A stretch of 64,000 nucleotides of DNA from Acidobacteriota bacterium (GTDB taxonomy: Bacteria; Acidobacteriota; UBA6911; RPQK01; CBDEGM01), in contig CBDEGM010000003.1 in assembly GCA_965237715.1 (NCBI GenBank), positions 519,913-583,912 of the forward strand, given 5' to 3'. A model generated the notes under the pieces. It searched no databases. It was not told the DNA's origin and was given only the letters and a program-made list of their open reading frames with translations. The position numbers and the translations under genes are program-made. How positions within the stretch are numbered: position 1 is the stretch's first letter; the number at the start of each line of letters is the position of its first letter. Shown here piece by piece: positions 7,144 through 39,637 of the stretch.

Positions 7144-8591
7144 CCCACTGGTTCGGCTTCCTGCGCTTGCTGGGATTCTTGATCCTCTTTCTTGCCCTCG
7201 CACTGAGCCTCCCCCTGCTTATCGCTTTTATCCTCGGTGATAGTGGATTCAGTTCCCTGCTCAAGGCAACGCTGACCACTGCAGGTCTCGGATTCTTTCT
7301 TTTCTGGATTTTTCAAACACCTCCTCATGAATTGACACGGCGGGAGGGAATTCTACTGGTGGTGGCTTGCTGGCTCTCAGCCAGTCTTCTAGGGGCACTC
7401 CCCTTCCATTTCTCCCCCTATTTCCCAAGCTTTACAGACGCGTTTTTTGAATCGATCTCCGGATTTACGACCACCGGAGCTTCGGTACTTGCCAGCGTGG
7501 AAGCGCTTCCCAAGAGCTTGCTCTTGTGGCGCTCTTTCACCCAGTGGCTGGGAGGCATGGGGATTATCTTGCTGGGAATTGTGATTCTTCCCTTAATTGG
7601 GGTGGGAGGTACCCAGCTCTATCGAGCGGAGTTCTCCGGTGCTCGTTCCGAGAAGCTCAGACCGCGGATTGCCGAAACAGCGATCGCTCTGTGGAAAATC
7701 TACGCTGCCTTTACCGTGGCAGGATATTTGGCCTTGCGTTGGGCGGGGATGGGCCCCTTCGATGCCGTCTGCCATACCCTCACCACCATGGCAACGGGAG
7801 GCTTTTCCACTCGAAACGAGAGCATCGAAGCTTTTGCCAGTCCCCACGTCGAGATGGTCATTGTGTTTTTCATGATCCTGGCCGGAATTAACTTTACCCG
7901 CCATTATCGTTTTCTGGTGGAGCGCCAGCCGGCCGGGTTTTTCGGCGACTTGGAGCTTCGTGTGTATGGTGTCATTCTTGCCGCAGCTACTCTGGTCATC
8001 ACGCTGTCGATTTTTCAGTCGTCCTCAGATCCCTTCTGGGAAGGTACACGAAAGGCACTCTTCCAGGTCGTCTCGATTACGACCACAACGGGCTTCGCTT
8101 CCACCGATTTCGAGCAGTGGAGTTCCTTCGCCCAACTGCTGCTGTTGGCCCTCATGTTCGCTGGAGGGTGCACCGGCTCCACCGCCGGCGGTCTCAAGAC
8201 GGCCCGGCTGGTGCTGCTCGCAAAGGTGGTGGGGCGCCAATTTAGACACATGGTGGAACCACGAGGCGTGTTTACCCTTCGGTTCAGTAATCAGACGGTC
8301 AGCGAAGTCTCGATCCAGAGTCTTCTGAATCTGATCTACCTTTCTTTTCTCGTCAATTTTGCCAGTTGTCTCCTGCTCACACTGGTGGGGATCGATATTC
8401 TGACGGCGATTTCCGCGGTGGCGGCCGCGATGTTCAATATTGGCCCGGGGCTCGGTGAGGTGGGCCCCACAGAAAATTATGGCCACCTCCCTGCCCTGGC
8501 GAAATGGGTTCTGAGCATCTGTATGCTGGCAGGACGACTTGAGTTCTACACCCTTTTTGTCCTCTTCACTCCCAGCTTTTGGAGAAAATGA
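7140..8591 (+). CDS. trkH: Trk/Ktr-family potassium transporter membrane subunit TrkH
   Basis: Multi-pass membrane protein with the TrkH-type repeated pore-loop pattern (GFTTTG, ...TTTGF...). GTG start overlaps the trkA stop, so the two are translationally coupled. Confidence 0.85.
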   Translation: MTHWFGFLRLLGFLILFLALALSLPLLIAFILGDSGFSSLLKATLTTAGLGFFLFWIFQTPPHELTRREGILLVVACWLSASLLGALPFHFSPYFPSFTDAFFESISGFTTTGASVLASVEALPKSLLLWRSFTQWLGGMGIILLGIVILPLIGVGGTQLYRAEFSGARSEKLRPRIAETAIALWKIYAAFTVAGYLALRWAGMGPFDAVCHTLTTMATGGFSTRNESIEAFASPHVEMVIVFFMILAGINFTRHYRFLVERQPAGFFGDLELRVYGVILAAATLVITLSIFQSSSDPFWEGTRKALFQVVSITTTTGFASTDFEQWSSFAQLLLLALMFAGGCTGSTAGGLKTARLVLLAKVVGRQFRHMVEPRGVFTLRFSNQTVSEVSIQSLLNLIYLSFLVNFASCLLLTLVGIDILTAISAVAAAMFNIGPGLGEVGPTENYGHLPALAKWVLSICMLAGRLEFYTLFVLFTPSFWRK

Positions 8592-8596
8592 AACTG

Positions 8597-8669
8597 CGGA
8601 TCACGCAGATCGTCACGGATTTTTGCAGATATGATCCGCGTCGATCTGTTCCGATCCGCGGATCCGCGG
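8597..8669. repeat. intergenic repeat family B copy 1 (GATCACGCrGATCGTCACGGAT..GCAGATAT.GATCCG.GTC.ATC)
   Basis: About 60 nt highly similar to 18095..18155. Both copies lie immediately 3' of a gene. Contains GATCCGCGGATC palindromes. Confidence 0.6.
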
Positions 8670-8765
8670 TCTCTGCTTTGACAGCAGTCAAATTCGGAAG
8701 GTATAATCCCTTTTCTCAACGACTTGTCGACTTTGTCGAACACTTCTTCTGAGGAGATACCTGTC

Positions 8766-9239
8766 TTGTACGCGATTATCAGAACGGGGGGCAAGCAGTG
8801 GCGGGTCAACCAGGGCGATGTGATTCGTGTGGAACGCCTCACTGGAGATGTGGGCAAACAGATACAATTCGAGGAAGTGATGTTCGTTGGAAATGAGAAT
8901 GAGATACGGGTTGGTACTCCGCTGGTCCCTGAAGCCCGCGTGGTGGGCACGATCACCCAGCAGGGGAAAGCAGCGAAGGTTCTGGTTTTTAAATACAAGC
9001 GGCGCAAGAAGTACCGGAGAACAAAAGGACATCGGCAGCTTTTTACCGAAGTCAGGATCGAGAAAATAGAACTCGCTGCACCCGCAGAGCGAAAAAGAAA
9101 GAAAGAGGCGACACCAAAGAAAGAGGTGAAGGCTGCGCCAAAGACGCCCATAAAAAAGAAAGAAGTCAAGAAAGCAGCAAAGGGACGGGTCGCAGAAGGA
9201 AAGATCAAGAAGGAAGCAGCTAAGAAACGCACCGAGTAA
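8766..9239 (+). CDS. rplU: 50S ribosomal protein L21 with Lys/Ala/Glu-rich C-terminal extension
   Basis: (TTG)YAIIRTGGKQWRVNQGDVIRVERL is canonical L21. About 60 extra residues of KKEVKAAPK-type basic tail follow. Confidence 0.85.
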   Translation: MYAIIRTGGKQWRVNQGDVIRVERLTGDVGKQIQFEEVMFVGNENEIRVGTPLVPEARVVGTITQQGKAAKVLVFKYKRRKKYRRTKGHRQLFTEVRIEKIELAAPAERKRKKEATPKKEVKAAPKTPIKKKEVKKAAKGRVAEGKIKKEAAKKRTE

Positions 9240-9284
9240 GACAAGGACCCCAAAGAAAAAGAGACAAGTCAAGGAATAGACTGC

Positions 9285-9548
9285 ATGGCGCATAAGAAAG
9301 GGTTAGGCAGTTCCCGAAATGGTCGCGACAGTCAGTCCAAGCGACTAGGAGTAAAGCGTTTCGACGGGCAATTCGTCACGGGCGGCGCCATTTTAGTGCG
9401 CCAGCGCGGTACGCGGATTCAGCCGGGTCTAAACGTCGGCCGGGGCAGTGACGACACACTCTTCGCCAAGATCGGCGGCATGGTCAAGTTCCAAAATCGA
9501 GGCCGGAGGGGCCGTTACGTTCACGTCCTGGCGGGCCAGGAAGTTTAG
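9285..9548 (+). CDS. rpmA: 50S ribosomal protein L27
   Basis: [31 protein letters not shown] is canonical L27. Confidence 0.9.
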
Positions 9549-9578
9549 CCCGGACTATTCGGCGGCTTGCTCGGAGGG

Positions 9579-10580
9579 ATGTTCATCGACCACGCCCGGA
9601 TCTATATCAAAGCGGGGGATGGCGGAAATGGTTGTTTAGCCTTTCGGCGAGAAAAGTTTGTGCCGAGAGGAGGCCCCAGCGGCGGCGACGGCGGTAAAGG
9701 GGGCGACATCTACTTCCGCAGTACCACCCAACTCAATACCCTCCTCCCTTTTAGATACCAACAGCACTTCAAAGCTGGATCAGGCCGCCACGGGTCAGGC
9801 AACAAGCGCCGTGGCAAAGATGGTAAATCGATGATCGTTGAAGTGCCTGTCGGCACTCAGATCTGCGAGCAGGCCAGCGGTGAAATGCTTTGTGATCTTG
9901 ATCGCCCCAACCGTCTGGAGTTGGCTGCCGAAGGAGGAAGAGGCGGGCGGGGAAACGCTCACTTTGCCACTTCGAAGAACCAGGCACCCAGGCATTTCGA
10001 GGAGGGAAAACCCGGACAGGAGCGGACCCTGGTCCTGGAACTGAAAATCCTGGCCGATGTGGGGCTGATCGGTTACCCCAATGCGGGTAAGTCCACTCTT
10101 GTCTCAGCGATTTCCTCCGCCCGGCCAAAAATTGCAGATTACCCTTTCACCACTCTCACCCCCACACTCGGGGTCGTCTCCTATGGAGACTATGGGAACT
10201 TTGTGGTGGCCGACATTCCAGGCCTGATCGAAGGAGCCCATAGCGGAACTGGCCTGGGAGACCAATTCCTGCGACACGTGGAGCGGACTCGACTACTGGT
10301 CCACCTGATCGATGTCACAGAAGGAGGTGAGGAGAGTCCTGTGGGCGCTCTTAAGGCGATCAATCGAGAACTAGAGCTTTACAATCCGTCACTACTGGAG
10401 AAACAGCAGATCATCACCGCCTCCAAAGTGGACTCAGTGAATCTCAAAAAACTCAACGGTTTGCGTCGCTACTGCCGGCAGCACCGGTTAGTTTTCTGTC
10501 AAATTTCGGCCGTGACGGGAAAAGGAATCAGGGAACTGAAGGAGAGAATCGCTCAACAACTCGGAGTTACAGGGAATTGA
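9579..10580 (+). CDS. obg: GTPase Obg/CgtA
   Basis: MFIDHARIYIKAGDGGNGCLAFRREKFVPRGGPSGGDGGKGGDIYF Obg fold, followed by GYPNAGKST and DIPGLIEGA GTPase motifs. Confidence 0.9.
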   Translation: MFIDHARIYIKAGDGGNGCLAFRREKFVPRGGPSGGDGGKGGDIYFRSTTQLNTLLPFRYQQHFKAGSGRHGSGNKRRGKDGKSMIVEVPVGTQICEQASGEMLCDLDRPNRLELAAEGGRGGRGNAHFATSKNQAPRHFEEGKPGQERTLVLELKILADVGLIGYPNAGKSTLVSAISSARPKIADYPFTTLTPTLGVVSYGDYGNFVVADIPGLIEGAHSGTGLGDQFLRHVERTRLLVHLIDVTEGGEESPVGALKAINRELELYNPSLLEKQQIITASKVDSVNLKKLNGLRRYCRQHRLVFCQISAVTGKGIRELKERIAQQLGVTGN

Positions 10581-11236
10581 GGATTGGCATTCTGGGAGGA
10601 ACTTTTGATCCCATTCACCAGGGACATACCTACCTTGCCAAGGAAGTGCTGAAAATCTTCAAGCTCGATCGTGTCCTCTTTATGATATCCCGTCTCCCTC
10701 CTCATAAGCCTGGAGGGGAAATCAGCAGCCCCTTTCACCGCTATGCGATGGTGGTTCTGGCGCTGCTTGGCCAGAAGCGGCTCTACACGTCACAGTGGGA
10801 GCTGCTGCGAGGGCGCTTCTCCTATACCGTGGACACGCTTCGACACTTCGCCCGGACACAACCCCAGCATCTCTACTGCTTCATCGCAGGCAGTGATTCC
10901 CTTAAGGAGATCCACCTATGGAAAGATTATGATAGGCTTCTAAGAAAGTACACGTTGATTTTTGTGCAGCGGCCCGGTGCTAGGATCAAGCTTCAGGAGC
11001 TAACGATCCCCGGGCCTCTGAAGGGAGCGATCAAGATCGTTCAAGATGGAGAAAGGCCTGCCATCCAGGCCGGGCAATCCTTCCTGGTCTCTCTTGACCC
11101 TCCCCCCATCAGCTCAACCTCAATTCGAGAGATGATTGTCGCAGGAAAGGAACCCAGCCAGCGGTGGGTCTCTCCGTCGGTTCTCCGTTACCTCCAGAAA
11201 CACAGACTGTATGAACGAAACAAGAAGCGTTGTTAA
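10577..11236 (+). CDS. nadD: nicotinate-nucleotide adenylyltransferase
   Basis: (TTG)RIGILGGTFDPIHQGHTYLA is the HxGH nucleotidyltransferase motif. Conserved obg-nadD-rsfS order. Confidence 0.8.
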   Translation: MRIGILGGTFDPIHQGHTYLAKEVLKIFKLDRVLFMISRLPPHKPGGEISSPFHRYAMVVLALLGQKRLYTSQWELLRGRFSYTVDTLRHFARTQPQHLYCFIAGSDSLKEIHLWKDYDRLLRKYTLIFVQRPGARIKLQELTIPGPLKGAIKIVQDGERPAIQAGQSFLVSLDPPPISSTSIREMIVAGKEPSQRWVSPSVLRYLQKHRLYERNKKRC

Positions 11237-14180: not shown

Positions 14181-14210
14181 TGACACGAGTGTCTTGACAC
14201 AAGTGTCTCG
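14181..14210. repeat. tandem GACACGAGTGTC palindromic units
   Basis: GACAC-GA-GTGTC hairpin unit repeated twice. The same unit pair occurs at 18176..18205 and 35121..35161. Confidence 0.65.
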
Positions 14211-18094: not shown

Positions 18095-18155
18095 GATCAC
18101 GCGGATCGTCACGGATGTTCGCAGATATTGATCCGTGTCAATCCGTTCTCATCTG
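18095..18155. repeat. intergenic repeat family B copy 2
   Basis: Matches 8597..8669 (gatcacgcggatcgtcacggatgttcgcagatattgatccgtgtcaatc). Confidence 0.6.
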
Positions 18156-18175: not shown

Positions 18176-18205
18176 CTCGACACGAGTGTCTCGACACGAG
18201 TGTCT
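18176..18205. repeat. tandem GACACGAGTGTC palindromic units
   Basis: ctcgacacgagtgtctcgacacgagtgtct. Confidence 0.65.
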
Positions 18206-18285
18206 TTGCTACGACATTTTTAGGTTAGGAATTGGGAATATAAGACCTACTTGACGTACACGGTAACGAGGTGTAGTTTGTTTGG

Positions 18286-18531
18286 GTGCGTTGGCAAAAA
18301 TGGTCCAGATGGATTGGAGCGAAGCCAGTATCAAGGATTGCAATTATTGCGCTGGTGCCAGGGATTGTCGGTGCGATTGGCGGAGGAATCTGGGAGTACA
18401 TCATGACTAGGGGACTATCAGGCTGGGTTCCGCTCTATGCAGGTCTGATTTCTGGGTTGATTTCGGGAATCGGAACCCTATTGTTTTCGTGGTATCTGGC
18501 GACGGCTCACCCTTTGGACCTGAACCACTGA
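18286..18531 (+). CDS. small hypothetical membrane protein (two predicted TM helices), IS passenger
   Basis: GTG-start ORF. RIAIIALVPGIVGAIGGGIW and LYAGLISGLISGIGTLLFSWYL hydrophobic helices. Low-GC cargo region. Confidence 0.3.
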   Translation: MRWQKWSRWIGAKPVSRIAIIALVPGIVGAIGGGIWEYIMTRGLSGWVPLYAGLISGLISGIGTLLFSWYLATAHPLDLNH

Positions 18532-18558
18532 GAATTCTCACCTCGTAAGCCATCTGAG

Positions 18559-18885
18559 TTGGTGGCAGAAATTAACGGCCTTACCGGCATAGCCAGGCAA
18601 TCCGTCATAGACCGACACGCCAACAAATGGTTGCGTGTAGCTGGAACTGTGTACGATGTTTTCGACAAAAACCAGCTAGTAATTTTGTGTTTGGATGGTA
18701 GCGATATTGGACCTAACTACTGGTTAGAATTCGACGCTTCCGACTGGCGAGACTCGCTAAAAACACTTAATGTCGGCGACCAAATCAGGGCGACCGGGAA
18801 AATAAAATCGTTCAACTCTCTGTATATTGTCCTTGCTCAGTGCGAGAAGGAGCAGGGGTTACACAATCTGAGCGCAATACAATGA
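18559..18885 (+). CDS. hypothetical protein, IS passenger
   Basis: 108-aa ORF with protein-like composition, immediately upstream of and overlapping the MTase start. No recognisable motif. Confidence 0.35.
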   Translation: MVAEINGLTGIARQSVIDRHANKWLRVAGTVYDVFDKNQLVILCLDGSDIGPNYWLEFDASDWRDSLKTLNVGDQIRATGKIKSFNSLYIVLAQCEKEQGLHNLSAIQ

Positions 18886-20235
18886 GCACGCCCAACTGGG
18901 CCAACCAGACCATCTGGACCGGGGATAACCTGCCGATCATGCGGGGCATGAACTCGGAGTCGGTAGACCTTATCTACTTAGACCCCCCCCTTCAACAGCA
19001 ATACGAACTACGCTGCTCCCATTGGCAGCAAGGCTGCTGGAGCCGAGTTCAAGGACACCTGGACCCTCACAGACATCAACGTCGAGTGGGTGAACCTGAT
19101 CGAGTCCAAGCACCCCGCTCTCCACCGTGTCCTGTTGGCGGCGATGACTTCCAGCGACAAGTCCTATCTGATCTACATGGCCGCTCGACTTCTCGAAATC
19201 AGGAGGATTCTCAAGCCCAAAGGCTCGATCTACCTGCACTGTGACCCGACCATGAGCCACTACCTCAAACTGCTCATGGACGCGGTTTTCGGTAAACGTA
19301 AATTCAGAAACGAAATCATCTGGAAGCGCAACTCATCACATAACGACTCGAAGGCATTTGGCCGCGTGGTCGACTCGCTCCTATTCTACGGCCCGCCAAT
19401 AAGGACCGATTCCGTCCGTGTCCCGCTAAGCACAGATTACACTGAGAAGTTTTACCGTCACCGGGACCACCGAGGGCTGTATCGACACGACAACATTATT
19501 CGATCCGCATCGATGGGCGAACGGCCTAACCTGACCTATGAGTACAAAGGCTTTACGCCACCCTTTGGGTGGCGAATGACCAAAGACAAGATAACGGCGC
19601 TGGACGCGGAAAACCGAATAGCTTGGTCTGCATCTGGGCGACCCTATCTGAAACGCTATTTGAGTGAGAACAAGGGGCAGGTTCCGTCGGCGATCTGGAC
19701 CGATATTTCGCCAATTTCAGGCCATGCCAAGGAACGAGTCGGCTATCCGACGCAGAAACCTGTCGCGCTACTGGCTCGCATCATCCAAGCAAGCTCCAAC
19801 ACGGGTGATATGGTTCTGGACCCGTTCTGCGGATGCGCCACGGCCTCCATTACGGCTCAGGGTTTACACAGGCAGTGGGTAGGAATCGATATCTCTCCCA
19901 AGGCCGCCGATCTAGTTCAACAGAGAATGCATGACGAACTGGGCCTATTTTCCAAGGTCATCCACCGCACGGATACTCCCAAACGCACGGACCTAGGAAC
20001 GCTCCCTAGGTACAACTCCGATGCCAATCGAAAGGAGATCTACGGCGATCAGGAAGGTCACTGCAACGGATGTCGGATCCACTTCGAGCTACGCAACTTG
20101 GAGGTAGGCCACATCATCTCCAAGGGCAAAGGCGGGACCGATCACATTGGAAACCTGCAACTTCTTTGTGGGAACTGTAATCGGATCAAAGGAGACCGTG
20201 GCATGGAGTACCTGAAAGCGAAGCTACAGATATGA
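18882..20235 (+). pseudogene. beta-class N6-adenine/N4-cytosine DNA methyltransferase fused to C-terminal HNH endonuclease; reading frame broken at a C8 homopolymer (18983..18990)
   Basis: N-terminus MSTPNWANQTIW..SVDLIYLDPP is in frame 0. With C7 instead of C8 it would read DPPFNSNTNY...KDTWT..., motif IV, and continue into the 19090..20235 frame. That frame carries HPTQKP-like GYPTQKPVALLARII, motif I VLDPFCGCATA, and the HNH motif HCNGC...HIISK...GNLQLLCGNCN. Confidence 0.7.
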
Positions 20236-21258
20236 GAAAACGACCTGACTATGGAAACGCAACCCCGGAAGACTTGGTGAGAGCTCTTCTGCGCGTGCAC
20301 CGGAAGACAGCCCGTTATCGGCAATCAGTTCCTGGTACATCAGTTGTTTCCCAGCCAAGCCCCGCACAACCCGTCTCATCTGGTGCAGAGTGTCCAGCTG
20401 GCGAAGGTTGTGCTTCCCAGCGAACTCACGAACATAGCGATCCAGATGTTTAGGACTGATCTTGTGAAAGACTCCCGTATGCGCCCTTTTGAGCATAGAC
20501 CAGAAGCTCTCGACGCCATTGGTATACGCTTTCCCTCGCACATACTCACCAATCGAGTGCTTAACCGTCTCATGATTCGGAAGGGTGTGGTAGGTCAAAG
20601 CGTCATCGGTGTAGATTTTGGTTCCCAGCTTGACGTGCTCCATAATGAAAAGGCTCATGGTCTCAGACTTGGTATTGCGGACAACTTGGGCGGAGACTTG
20701 ATTAGAGGATCGATCTTTGATCCCCGCTACAGCCATTTTGCCAGTCGGTCCACGACCACTCATCTGAGCTCTCTTGGTCTTGTTCATGTTCCTGCGCTTT
20801 CCTCCTATGTAGGTCTCATCGACTTCGACCGGGCCGGAGAAAGACGTTCCACCGTTTTTAGTTCTGGTCCAGGCTTCTCGAATTCTGTGGAGCATGAACC
20901 ATGCAGCGGGTTGACTGACCCCAATGTCGCTCGCCAACTTGGTGGAGGCGATGCTCTTCAAACTGGTCAGTTCCAGATAAATGGCCATAGCCCATTTGTG
21001 GAGCGAGAGGTTTGTTTTGGCAATGGGCGTCCCAGTGCGGACCGAGAAATACCGCTCGCAATCTCGGCACCGATACGGCATGGGCTTTCGGTTGGGCACG
21101 GTGTAGGTATTGGTGGACCCGCAATGCCCACAACACCTTTCCTCTGGCCACAGTGTCTTTTCAAACCACTCCTCAGCTGCTTTTTCGTTGGGGAACATGT
21201 CCATCAAGTGGATAATGTTGAGTTTCCTGCGTTGCCGGTTTCTTGTTTGTTTTCCCAT
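20224..21258 (-). CDS. IS1595-family (ISXO2-like) transposase
   Basis: N-terminal zinc ribbon CCGHCGS...YRCRDCERYFSVRTGT, then the ISXO2-like DDE domain (VEVDETYIGGK...). 344 aa. Confidence 0.85.
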   Translation of the reverse strand: MGKQTRNRQRRKLNIIHLMDMFPNEKAAEEWFEKTLWPEERCCGHCGSTNTYTVPNRKPMPYRCRDCERYFSVRTGTPIAKTNLSLHKWAMAIYLELTSLKSIASTKLASDIGVSQPAAWFMLHRIREAWTRTKNGGTSFSGPVEVDETYIGGKRRNMNKTKRAQMSGRGPTGKMAVAGIKDRSSNQVSAQVVRNTKSETMSLFIMEHVKLGTKIYTDDALTYHTLPNHETVKHSIGEYVRGKAYTNGVESFWSMLKRAHTGVFHKISPKHLDRYVREFAGKHNLRQLDTLHQMRRVVRGLAGKQLMYQELIADNGLSSGARAEELSPSLPGLRFHSQVVFSYL

Positions 21259-21337
21259 AGGAGTATTATATGTCAGGAGAAGGGAAAAGTCAAGTAGGTC
21301 TTATAATCCCCTTAGGAATCTATGCCTTGGTGCTTTG

Positions 21338-35120: not shown

Positions 35121-35161
35121 GACACGAGTGTCTTGACACGAGTGTCTTGACGACGAGTGCC
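35121..35161. repeat. tandem GACACGAGTGTC palindromic units (x2 plus a degenerate third)
   Basis: gacacgagtgtcttgacacgagtgtcttgacgacgagtgcc. Confidence 0.65.
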
Positions 35162-39380: not shown

Positions 39381-39637
39381 TACCTCTTAGCCGACATTCC
39401 CCATATCATTCTCGGAAGGACCTTTTTCCGGTCTCTCCAGTGAATGACCACAACTTATCAGACCGTCAACCTTGCCTCAAGTGGTCTTTGGTCCCTCTCT
39501 CCATCAAAAGCGCCTCTGCTCCCTCGGTTTTCCAGGTGCTTTTCGTCAAAAACCTGATGTTGCAAAACCGGAAGAATGGAGCGCTTCCAGTGCTCAATCC
39601 TACAGCTGCGTGAGGCTTACCTGGTAAGGGAATGAGG

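Follow-up and report, generated by a model that had tools for sequence, protein, structure and literature searches.

The window, by which we mean the whole 64,000-nt stretch analysed here (positions 519,913 to 583,912 of contig CBDEGM010000003.1, assembly GCA_965237715.1, Acidobacteriota bacterium), carries a short mobile element (18233-21311) in which a transposase gene of the insertion sequence (IS) family IS1595 and two passenger genes are enclosed between terminal inverted repeats (IRs). The first passenger encodes a predicted membrane protein with an OB-fold, and the second, referred to below as the cargo, a DNA methyltransferase (MTase) fused to a C-terminal HNH domain (methylase-HNH). 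Very probably, the element is one copy of a multi-copy IS1595-family "transporter IS" (tIS), with its passengers located within the IRs and its cargo crippled in this lineage. The features of the locus are listed in Table 1.

Table 1. Coordinates of the element, its genes and its sequence signals in the window; ORF, open reading frame.
Feature	Position	Strand	Remarks
Left 8-bp target-site duplication TTAGGAAT	18225..18232	.	identical to 21312-21319; other copies have different 8-mers
Left (cargo-side) terminal IR, tip T18233 + 22-nt IR GGGAATATAAGACCTACTTGAC	18233..18255	+	IR proper 18234-18255
Passenger gene 1, ~199 codons, two N-terminal membrane helices and C-terminal OB-fold (tRNA_anti-like)	18286..18885	+	in-frame TGA 18529-18531
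Passenger gene 2, beta-class (Type III Mod-like) DNA methyltransferase with C-terminal HNH	18882..20235	+	frameshifted; 450 aa with one C removed
Poly-C run within the DPPF codons	18983..18990	+	8 C in the window copy; 7 C = intact frame
GGC (Gly409) at the conserved Asp of the HNH "DH" dyad	20107..20109	+	from the alignment of homologues
IS1595-family DDE transposase, 344 aa, N-terminal zinc ribbon	20224..21258	-	Pfam and NCBIfam matches
Small ORF antisense to the transposase 3′ end	20232..20453	+	conserved part MRKRPDYGNATPEDLVRALLR; ATG overlaps the MTase stop (ATGA)
Candidate sigma-70-like promoter of the transposase gene, TTGACT-17-TATAAT	21265..21293	-	consensus match 11/12; -35 hexamer within the right IR
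Right (transposase-side) terminal IR, 22 nt + tip C21311	21289..21311	-	IR proper 21289-21310
Right 8-bp target-site duplication TTAGGAAT	21312..21319	.	ends 19 nt before the GTG of nth

Boundaries and genes of the element

The two 22-nt arms are complementary at 21 of 22 positions and form the longest inverted pair of the region; their motif is found at these two sites only in the window, with no matches expected from 100 shuffles. The imperfect 22-bp pair bounding a 3079-bp segment that had been described in an initial annotation is therefore present and unique in the 64 kb. The 8-bp direct repeat reported with it is perfect as well, but does not directly adjoin the IRs as claimed: a single base lies between each duplication and the 22-nt IR (T18233 on the left, C21311 on the right), and the unit measures 3,079 bp once these tip bases are counted in. 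Among the near-identical copies of the element described below, the outermost base varies: the cargo-side tip is T or G, the transposase-side tip C or A, and each of the four possible pairings occurs; G occupies the cargo-side tip in six of the nine copies.

The assignment of the transposase to an IS1595/ISXO2-like group is borne out by matches to Pfam DDE_Tnp_IS1595 (PF12762; 1.7e-36), to NCBIfam transpos_IS1595 (NF033547; 4.7e-48, 163.9 bits with a cut-off of 75) and, for residues 23-69, to Zn_ribbon_IS1595 (PF12760; 27 bits with a cut-off of 25.4). Its homologues number in the thousands at 60-79% identity. The residue pattern VDETY...YTDDA...NGVESFWSMLKR supplies D, D and E, followed by K seven residues on. 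Together with the transposase-side end, which reads GGGGATTAT here and GGGGATTA or GGGAATTAT in relatives, this arrangement resembles what we take to be the signature of the ISNwi1 subgroup (ends ggnnatTAT and a DDEK motif), the subgroup assignment being provisional. The enzyme would bind the 22/23-nt ends and catalyse transposition, and its gene would be transcribed from a promoter whose -35 hexamer sits in the right IR. This promoter is a consensus match only, and such matches are, in total, no more numerous in the region than expected from shuffles. Location of a -35 hexamer within the IR is common among IS elements, in which transposase binding can then repress the transposase's own gene.

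Three passenger ORFs had been proposed initially, including a separate micro-protein with two transmembrane (TM) helices and a 108-aa protein of unknown kind. In fact, these two are the halves of a single nonsense-split gene, which leaves two passenger genes in total. The 81-aa and 108-aa ORFs share one frame and are separated by an in-frame TGA codon that is unchanged in all copies. A full HMMER search with the 108-aa ORF recovered 185 remote homologues, mostly 180-230 aa long, in which the 108-aa part is C-terminal and the N-termini match the 81-aa ORF (ILPGIIAGIIEYVVTKGVSGWLPL vs LVPGIVGAIGGGIWEYIMTRGLSGWVPL). In the homologue P0285, the linker ..EREFSPRKP.. aligns with ..NH*EFSPRKP.. of the element, and the hidden Markov model (HMM) of the family matches both halves (7e-41 and 4.5e-7). 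The homologues pass the Pfam threshold for tRNA_anti-like. Searched separately, the 81-aa and 108-aa ORFs had no significant match in Pfam, NCBIfam or PADLOC, and an exact look-up of the 108-aa product returned nothing; a word-index search, which retrieved a truncated self-copy alone, had suggested that the 108-aa ORF is an orphan, a notion overturned by the 185 HMMER homologues. The stop codon of gene 1 overlaps the MTase start (ATGA, 18882-18885). The family HMM detected gene 1 beside methylase-HNH in none of 85 other loci, indicating that it is not a regular partner; gene 1 appears to be an extra, lineage-specific passenger. The low GC content attributed to the passengers holds clearly for the 108-aa part (46.8%) and is marginal for the rest, the values being 54.4% for the MTase, 52.2% for the transposase, 52.3% for the element, 53% for the flanks and 56.1% for the window.

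Copies of the element and their mobility

The window is part of ctg495421 (1.39 Mb, ~12x coverage) of the ENA assembly ERZ26167216. At least eight further copies of the element reside in this assembly, on contigs of similar coverage, and encode an identical transposase protein that always adjoins a methylase-HNH gene. The eight copies that were fetched (L001-L008) are 99.5-99.95% identical to the window copy across the whole 3.08 kb, passengers included; the same IRs are found in all nine copies, and the flanks are unrelated. Perfect 8-bp duplications border L001 (TAGAGATA) and L002 (AAAGAAAA), seven of the eight positions match in L003, and the duplication of L005 is offset by 1 nt. The flanking 8-mers, 13 of them distinct, are 86% A+T, compared with 56% GC of the window. 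A search for other genomic copies of the IR pair, proposed in the initial annotation as a check, thus yielded at least eight, located elsewhere and in several cases bordered by 8-bp duplications of their own, and the central claim of that annotation, a cargo-carrying IS1595 unit that transposes as a whole, is supported by the nine near-identical copies. The 3.08-kb unit has inserted whole at many AT-rich 8-bp targets, with 8 bp duplicated each time. Furthermore, because the nine copies are 99.5-99.95% identical and an identical transposase is encoded at many sites, the element must have been active recently. For the cargo gene, 19 distinct protein variants are recorded for ERZ26167216, and a rough estimate of the total number of copies in the assembly is ~15-20. 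A pattern scan of JGI metagenomes for the IR returned one locus, the sequence of which is too short to show cargo.

Flanks that do not match each other are read as the outcome of recombination between copies. The most informative case is that of L004 and L006, inverted copies located ~112 kb apart on ctg495427 (~660.8-785.6 kb), the flanks of which are exchanged (CTTACAAA, ATAAAAAG). When these flanks are rejoined in silico, continuous IS1595-type and IS5-type transposase frames are restored, each with a single 8-mer, as expected of empty sites. Because the rejoined flanks restore these frames, the sequences indicate that an inversion of ~112 kb arose by recombination between the two copies, and the element can be seen to have inserted into other IS elements. 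Unmatched flanks also occur in L007 and L008; their partners are presumably copies other than the eight that were fetched.

Later insertions are nested in two of the copies. In L003 (~7960-11220), the methylase gene is interrupted by a different IS1595 tIS of 3,261 bp, with perfect 24-nt IRs (GGGGATTACTAACAATAGTGCCCA) and an 8-bp target-site duplication (TSD; CTGAATTT). In addition to a 312-aa transposase, this tIS encodes three ORFs (86, 324 and 65 aa), the second of which has a weak metallopeptidase match. In L007 (~8842-10274), the nested insertion is an IS256-like element (Transposase_mut) of 1,433 bp with a 9-bp duplication (CCAGCCTGA).

Cargo-carrying tIS were first described for the IS1595 family (Siguier et al. 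2009, as cited in PMC11891212 and PMC7986276), and the same papers list methyltransferases among tIS passengers, so that the novelty initially claimed for the unit was overstated. The element shares with tIS of the ISNwi1+/ISPna2+/ISNha5 type a zinc-ribbon DDE transposase, short IRs, an 8-bp duplication and passengers within the IRs; in all nine copies, the MTase-HNH gene and the 2-TM/OB gene lie between the IRs and move along with them. In contrast, the literature searched contained no description of passengers such as these, an MTase-HNH fusion and a 2-TM OB-fold protein. Furuta, Abe and Kobayashi 2010 (PMC2853133) provide a second precedent, namely restriction-modification (R-M) units that are bounded by IRs and have 8-bp duplications; Siguier et al. 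2009 is cited there for solitary M genes flanked by IS. These units and solitary methylases resemble the element in that modification genes are found within imperfect IRs with an 8-bp duplication, and they have been read as selfish mobile genes. However, they are without a transposase of their own or are flanked by whole IS, whereas the element has its transposase inside and combines methylase and nuclease in one polypeptide.

The methylase-HNH cargo and its decay

The cargo had been described as a beta-class MTase-HNH fusion. Both domains are indeed encoded, but the reading frame is not intact in the window copy, which has a +1 frameshift at the run of eight C. Removal of one C gives a 450-aa protein identical to P0001, which is encoded by other copies, with N6_N4_Mtase (3e-39) and HNH (6e-11) domains in a single chain. 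The closest solved relatives of the repaired protein are beta-class N6-adenine methylases and Type III Mod subunits. In an AlphaFold model (mean pLDDT 76.8), EcoP15I Mod is the best fold match, and the tail matches the Gme HNH nickase and the Cas9 HNH domain. The best sequence and fold matches for cargo residues 1-360 are EcoP15I Mod and the beta-class MTases M.BceJIV, CcrM, M.MboIIA and M.RsrI, with which the cargo shares a motif order that places DPPF first and the S-adenosylmethionine-binding motif last. Unlike Type III Mod, the cargo is without a Res partner and has a C-terminal HNH fused instead.

In joining MTase and nuclease or nickase in one chain with no partner gene, the cargo family is similar to Type IIG/IIC enzymes and to prophage ParB-methyltransferase nicking fusions. 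Type IIG enzymes combine a PD-(D/E)XK nuclease with a gamma-class methylase; to our knowledge, no combination of HNH with a beta-class methylase has been characterised. The ParB-methyltransferase fusions, the nicking activity of which is mentioned in PMC3592412, use a ParB-like domain, whereas the cargo has an HNH domain, with an activity predicted from the domains. The window copy itself is not an intact enzyme of the Type IIG/IIC sort, as its frame is shifted at DPPF and Gly stands in place of the HNH Asp.

The length of the C run differs from copy to copy: it is 7 in L001, L002, L003 and L006, 8 in the window copy, L004, L005 and L007, and 11 in L008, and a length of 10 is implied by the 451-aa variant P0134, which reads DPPPF. 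Overall, five of the nine copies, the window copy among them, have a run that puts the gene out of frame. Because homologues are without the run and encode DPPF with mixed codons, as does the related element L101 (88-92% identity), the run is a recent, lineage-specific feature. It is conceivable, if unlikely, that the run is a contingency locus at which slipped-strand mispairing switches the methylase copy by copy, which would make the element a transposon-borne phasevarion. As in phasevarions, a homopolymer run is found in a methylase frame and length variants shift this frame. Moreover, the run is located in the catalytic motif, so that every length other than 7 disables the enzyme, and the lengths 7, 8 and 11 (and 10, as implied) occur among copies that have only 1-9 other differences over 3 kb. 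However, phasevarion-like switching is difficult to reconcile with a run that is confined to this lineage and absent from relatives, and the length differences seen are those from one paralogous transposon copy to another, not within one locus. Coverage is ~11x, and homopolymers are a typical site of long-read consensus error. Finally, with about half of the copies ON at any time, switching of a single copy would hardly alter the phenotype.

The second lesion is in the nuclease domain. In the alignment of 50 homologues, the HNH motif reads ...LEVDHII...GG..H..NLQLLCG.CN..K., and the Asp of the DH dyad is present in all 49 other homologues; Gly is found solely in the studied element, where the codon is invariant in all nine copies. 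Gly409 aligns with the D of ELDHIVP in the Cas9 HNH domain, and, as we understand it, the Asp of the dyad binds the catalytic metal in Cas9 and T4 endonuclease VII. The Asp is kept in L101, in the variants P0126 and P0013, and in more distant paralogues of the same assembly. Further cargo variants have C-terminal frameshifts that remove the HNH domain altogether. Copies with an out-of-frame run retain a 381-codon ORF that includes the HNH domain and is without methylase motif IV; speculatively, an active HNH in such a methylase-less product would be hazardous, which could explain the fixation of Gly409.

Because the nonsense codon of gene 1 and Gly409 are common to all nine copies, the cargo would already have been disabled when the element amplified. 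With a frameshift in the methylase and the HNH Asp replaced, the window locus does not encode an intact methylase-nuclease module and is best viewed as a live IS with dead cargo; at the level of the genome, the copies with an intact frame could supply at most a methylase without a working nuclease. The initial suggestion of a compact mobile epigenetic or defence module was, accordingly, too strong for this lineage, given the frameshift at the locus and the missing Asp in nine copies. A rival reading, in which the copies with an intact frame give the host a working mobile module for defence or addiction, their active methylase-nuclease restricting unmethylated incoming DNA or killing cells that lose it, with the broken copies as spares, appears decidedly unlikely. 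Four of the nine copies do keep the 450-aa frame, and the methylase-HNH gene stands alone without a partner gene in a large family that always keeps both domains, along with invariant HNH residues H410, N424 and N433 and CxxC pairs; its frequent linkage to transposases is also as known for selfish R-M genes. Against this stand the Gly that replaces, in all nine copies, an Asp invariant in the 49 other aligned homologues, the nonsense mutation of gene 1 in every copy and the variants that lose the HNH domain by frameshift. This pattern of mutations looks like relaxed selection on the cargo.

The wider family, related elements and the insertion site

Homologues of methylase-HNH number in the thousands at 58-73% identity, and the full-length ones among the 120 matches listed carry both domains in one chain, like the repaired protein. 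A scan of one genome per species yielded 592 relatives, and the best 80 of the 592 loci were examined. Almost all of these 80 are from metagenome-assembled genomes, for example, of Poribacteria, Dehalococcoidia/SAR202, Caldilineaceae, Acidobacteriota, Alpha- and Gammaproteobacteria and Poriferihabitaceae, labels that we take to denote typical sponge-symbiont lineages. A transposase is encoded within 5 kb of methylase-HNH in 21 of the 80 loci (IS1595 in 16, IS1 in 5), and at least five IR-bounded MTase-HNH units with perfect 8-bp TSDs were delineated (L057, L059, L061, L079 and L091). The gene order varies, with the transposase downstream and convergent, upstream and co-directional, or divergent. 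Apart from transposases, no conserved neighbour gene was detected in the sampled loci (a helicase is found in five), and because there is no such partner, the fusion may be suggested to work alone. We found no description of the methylase-HNH family as IS1595 or IS1 cargo in the literature searched.

The IS1-family transposases that adjoin methylase-HNH are those at L024 (4625-7388), L046 (2431-7220), L036, L058 and L092; at L024 and L046, the methylase-HNH gene is inside units bounded by the IR GGTAGTGTCTCAGTTTGA.

Closer relatives of the studied element include a 3.7-kb element, three copies of which, 99.9% identical, are found in a 9.2-Mb Acidobacteriota genome; they have IRs (GGGGATTACAAAGACTACTTGAC) near-identical to those of the studied element and an intact MTase-HNH gene. 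The nearest outside relative of the transposase (79% identity) is encoded by a 2,481-bp element (L096, 4448-6928; also L097-L100), the IRs of which (GGGTATTATAAGATCTACTTGAC) are almost identical and the TSD of which (TTTGGAAA) is perfect; its cargo is a phosphoribosyltransferase-domain gene and a 126-aa ORF. Because it can carry a different cargo, the backbone is a cargo platform, and methylase-HNH is a recurrent cargo.

Some details of these relatives can be added. Past the cargo of the L096 unit, 130 bp with homology to the transposase 3′ end are found a second time, which hints that cargo enters at the transposase-3′ end of the IS. Two occurrences of the 3.7-kb element, L012 and L013 (OZ240210.1, ~8.92 and 9.06 Mb), have flanks that are, for each copy, mutually inverted repeats, and each of the 8-mers TTTTGAAA and TTTCAAA has its partner in the other copy. 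This configuration suggests that both copies entered a repeated sequence at one and the same point and that an inversion came later. In the case of L012, the interrupted gene is a Type I hsdS.

Given that IS1595 and IS1 elements both carry the gene, the methylase-HNH could also be envisaged as a homing-type mobile agent, the HNH domain of which cuts naive IS1595 or IS1 elements so that the gene copies itself in. We consider this very improbable. In its favour, transposase and cargo identities are uncorrelated (Spearman 0.02), revealing no overall co-divergence, and L020 and L030 have transposases that are 34% identical with cargo that is 71% identical. In closely related backbones, the order and orientation of the gene differ, and there is precedent for HNH genes that home into methylase genes (PMC11855218). 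A neighbour-joining tree groups the genes linked to IS in a portion of the family, with backbones and arrangements mixed. However, about three quarters of the sampled loci have no transposase nearby, the insertion points inside the IS differ and no common homing site is evident, and the data are also accounted for by capture through flanking IS copies and subsequent selection. As for the reading in which the cargo is outside the mobile unit, the IS being either a simple one next to native genes or one of two whole IS in a composite, nothing speaks for it beyond the view of a single copy within the window, and it is refuted: the same IR pair encloses cargo and transposase in nine copies at unrelated sites with duplications of their own, each unit has one transposase gene and one IR pair, and the cargo travels between the IRs in every copy.

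By far the best account of 18233-21311 is, therefore, that of a multi-copy tIS with decayed passengers. With respect to the cargo family at large, its members would be stand-alone enzymes that methylate a target sequence and nick or cut DNA through the HNH domain. That they constitute a selfish single-chain R-M or nicking-methylase module mobilised by IS, perhaps stabilising or protecting its carrier, is an attractive proposal to which we give slightly less than even chances; the alternatives are a nicking methylase of some other role or a homing-type gene. A bolder proposal, which we regard as quite unlikely, is that methylase-HNH is a selfish module that has repeatedly colonised, or been captured by, IS1595 and IS1 elements, crossing phyla that share the sponge habitat, and that, in this genome, the C run switches ~20 copies independently as a transposon-distributed epigenetic switch.

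Several points weigh against the tIS reading and its extension to the family. Flanks are unmatched in four of the nine copies, and assembly errors at a 3-kb repeat are a possible cause. No genuine empty site was found in a related strain by exact-protein look-up, the flanking proteins being recorded in ERZ26167216 alone; of the empty-site comparison put forward in the initial annotation, what could be had is thus the single 8-mer at each of the rejoined L004/L006 flanks, and not a related genome free of the insertion. IS1595 elements may be dense in the genomes sampled, so that 16 of 80 would overstate the linkage, although the cases bounded by IRs and TSDs are unaffected. Differences in C-run length could in part be long-read consensus errors. 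The loss of nuclease activity through Gly409, although likely, is a prediction, and the proposed R-M role derives from domain content and the lack of partner genes.

The locus presents an IS with clear boundaries and recent activity that takes DNA-modification genes along when it moves, and the window copy illustrates decay of the cargo alongside an intact transposase. The repeated occurrence of a single methylase-HNH family on backbones of both IS1595 and IS1, in numerous uncultured marine genomes largely of sponge-symbiont type, bears on the horizontal spread of methylases and restriction-like genes and on how IS pick up cargo. Current views of IS biology are not overturned by these observations, the main value of which lies in the recurrent association of cargo and IS across uncultured marine genomes and in the clear case of cargo decay.

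The small ORF antisense to the transposase 3′ end has counterparts, equally placed, in the related IS backbones L011 (6177-6371), L012 (5911-6099), L016 (~4758, minus strand) and L095 (3-194), with a peptide of the form ..LDPKRDL.GATPE.LA+AL+R. In these relatives, the N-terminal ~25 codons extend past the transposase stop, and changes are mostly at the third codon position. Because variation is mainly at third positions, the peptide seems to be under selection; it has no Pfam match and could be an IS-encoded regulator.

The GTG start (21338) of the endonuclease III gene nth follows 19 nt after the insertion, which separates the gene from its former upstream region; a simple scan detected no outward promoter toward nth. 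Of the native intergenic repeats noted initially, short dispersed ones do adjoin the insertion, and the element is inserted right beside one cluster of them. These include a tandem 14-mer, CT(C/T)GACACGAGTGT, present in 2-3 units at three intergenic sites (18176-18203, 35121-35160 and 14181-14210), and a GATC-rich repeat of ~35-50 nt at two sites (18095-18150 and 8599-8632). Rfam detected no RNA family in the window. Another dispersed repeat is represented by a 175-bp intergenic segment of the window (39386-39558), which is 91% identical to positions 5243-5415 of L004.

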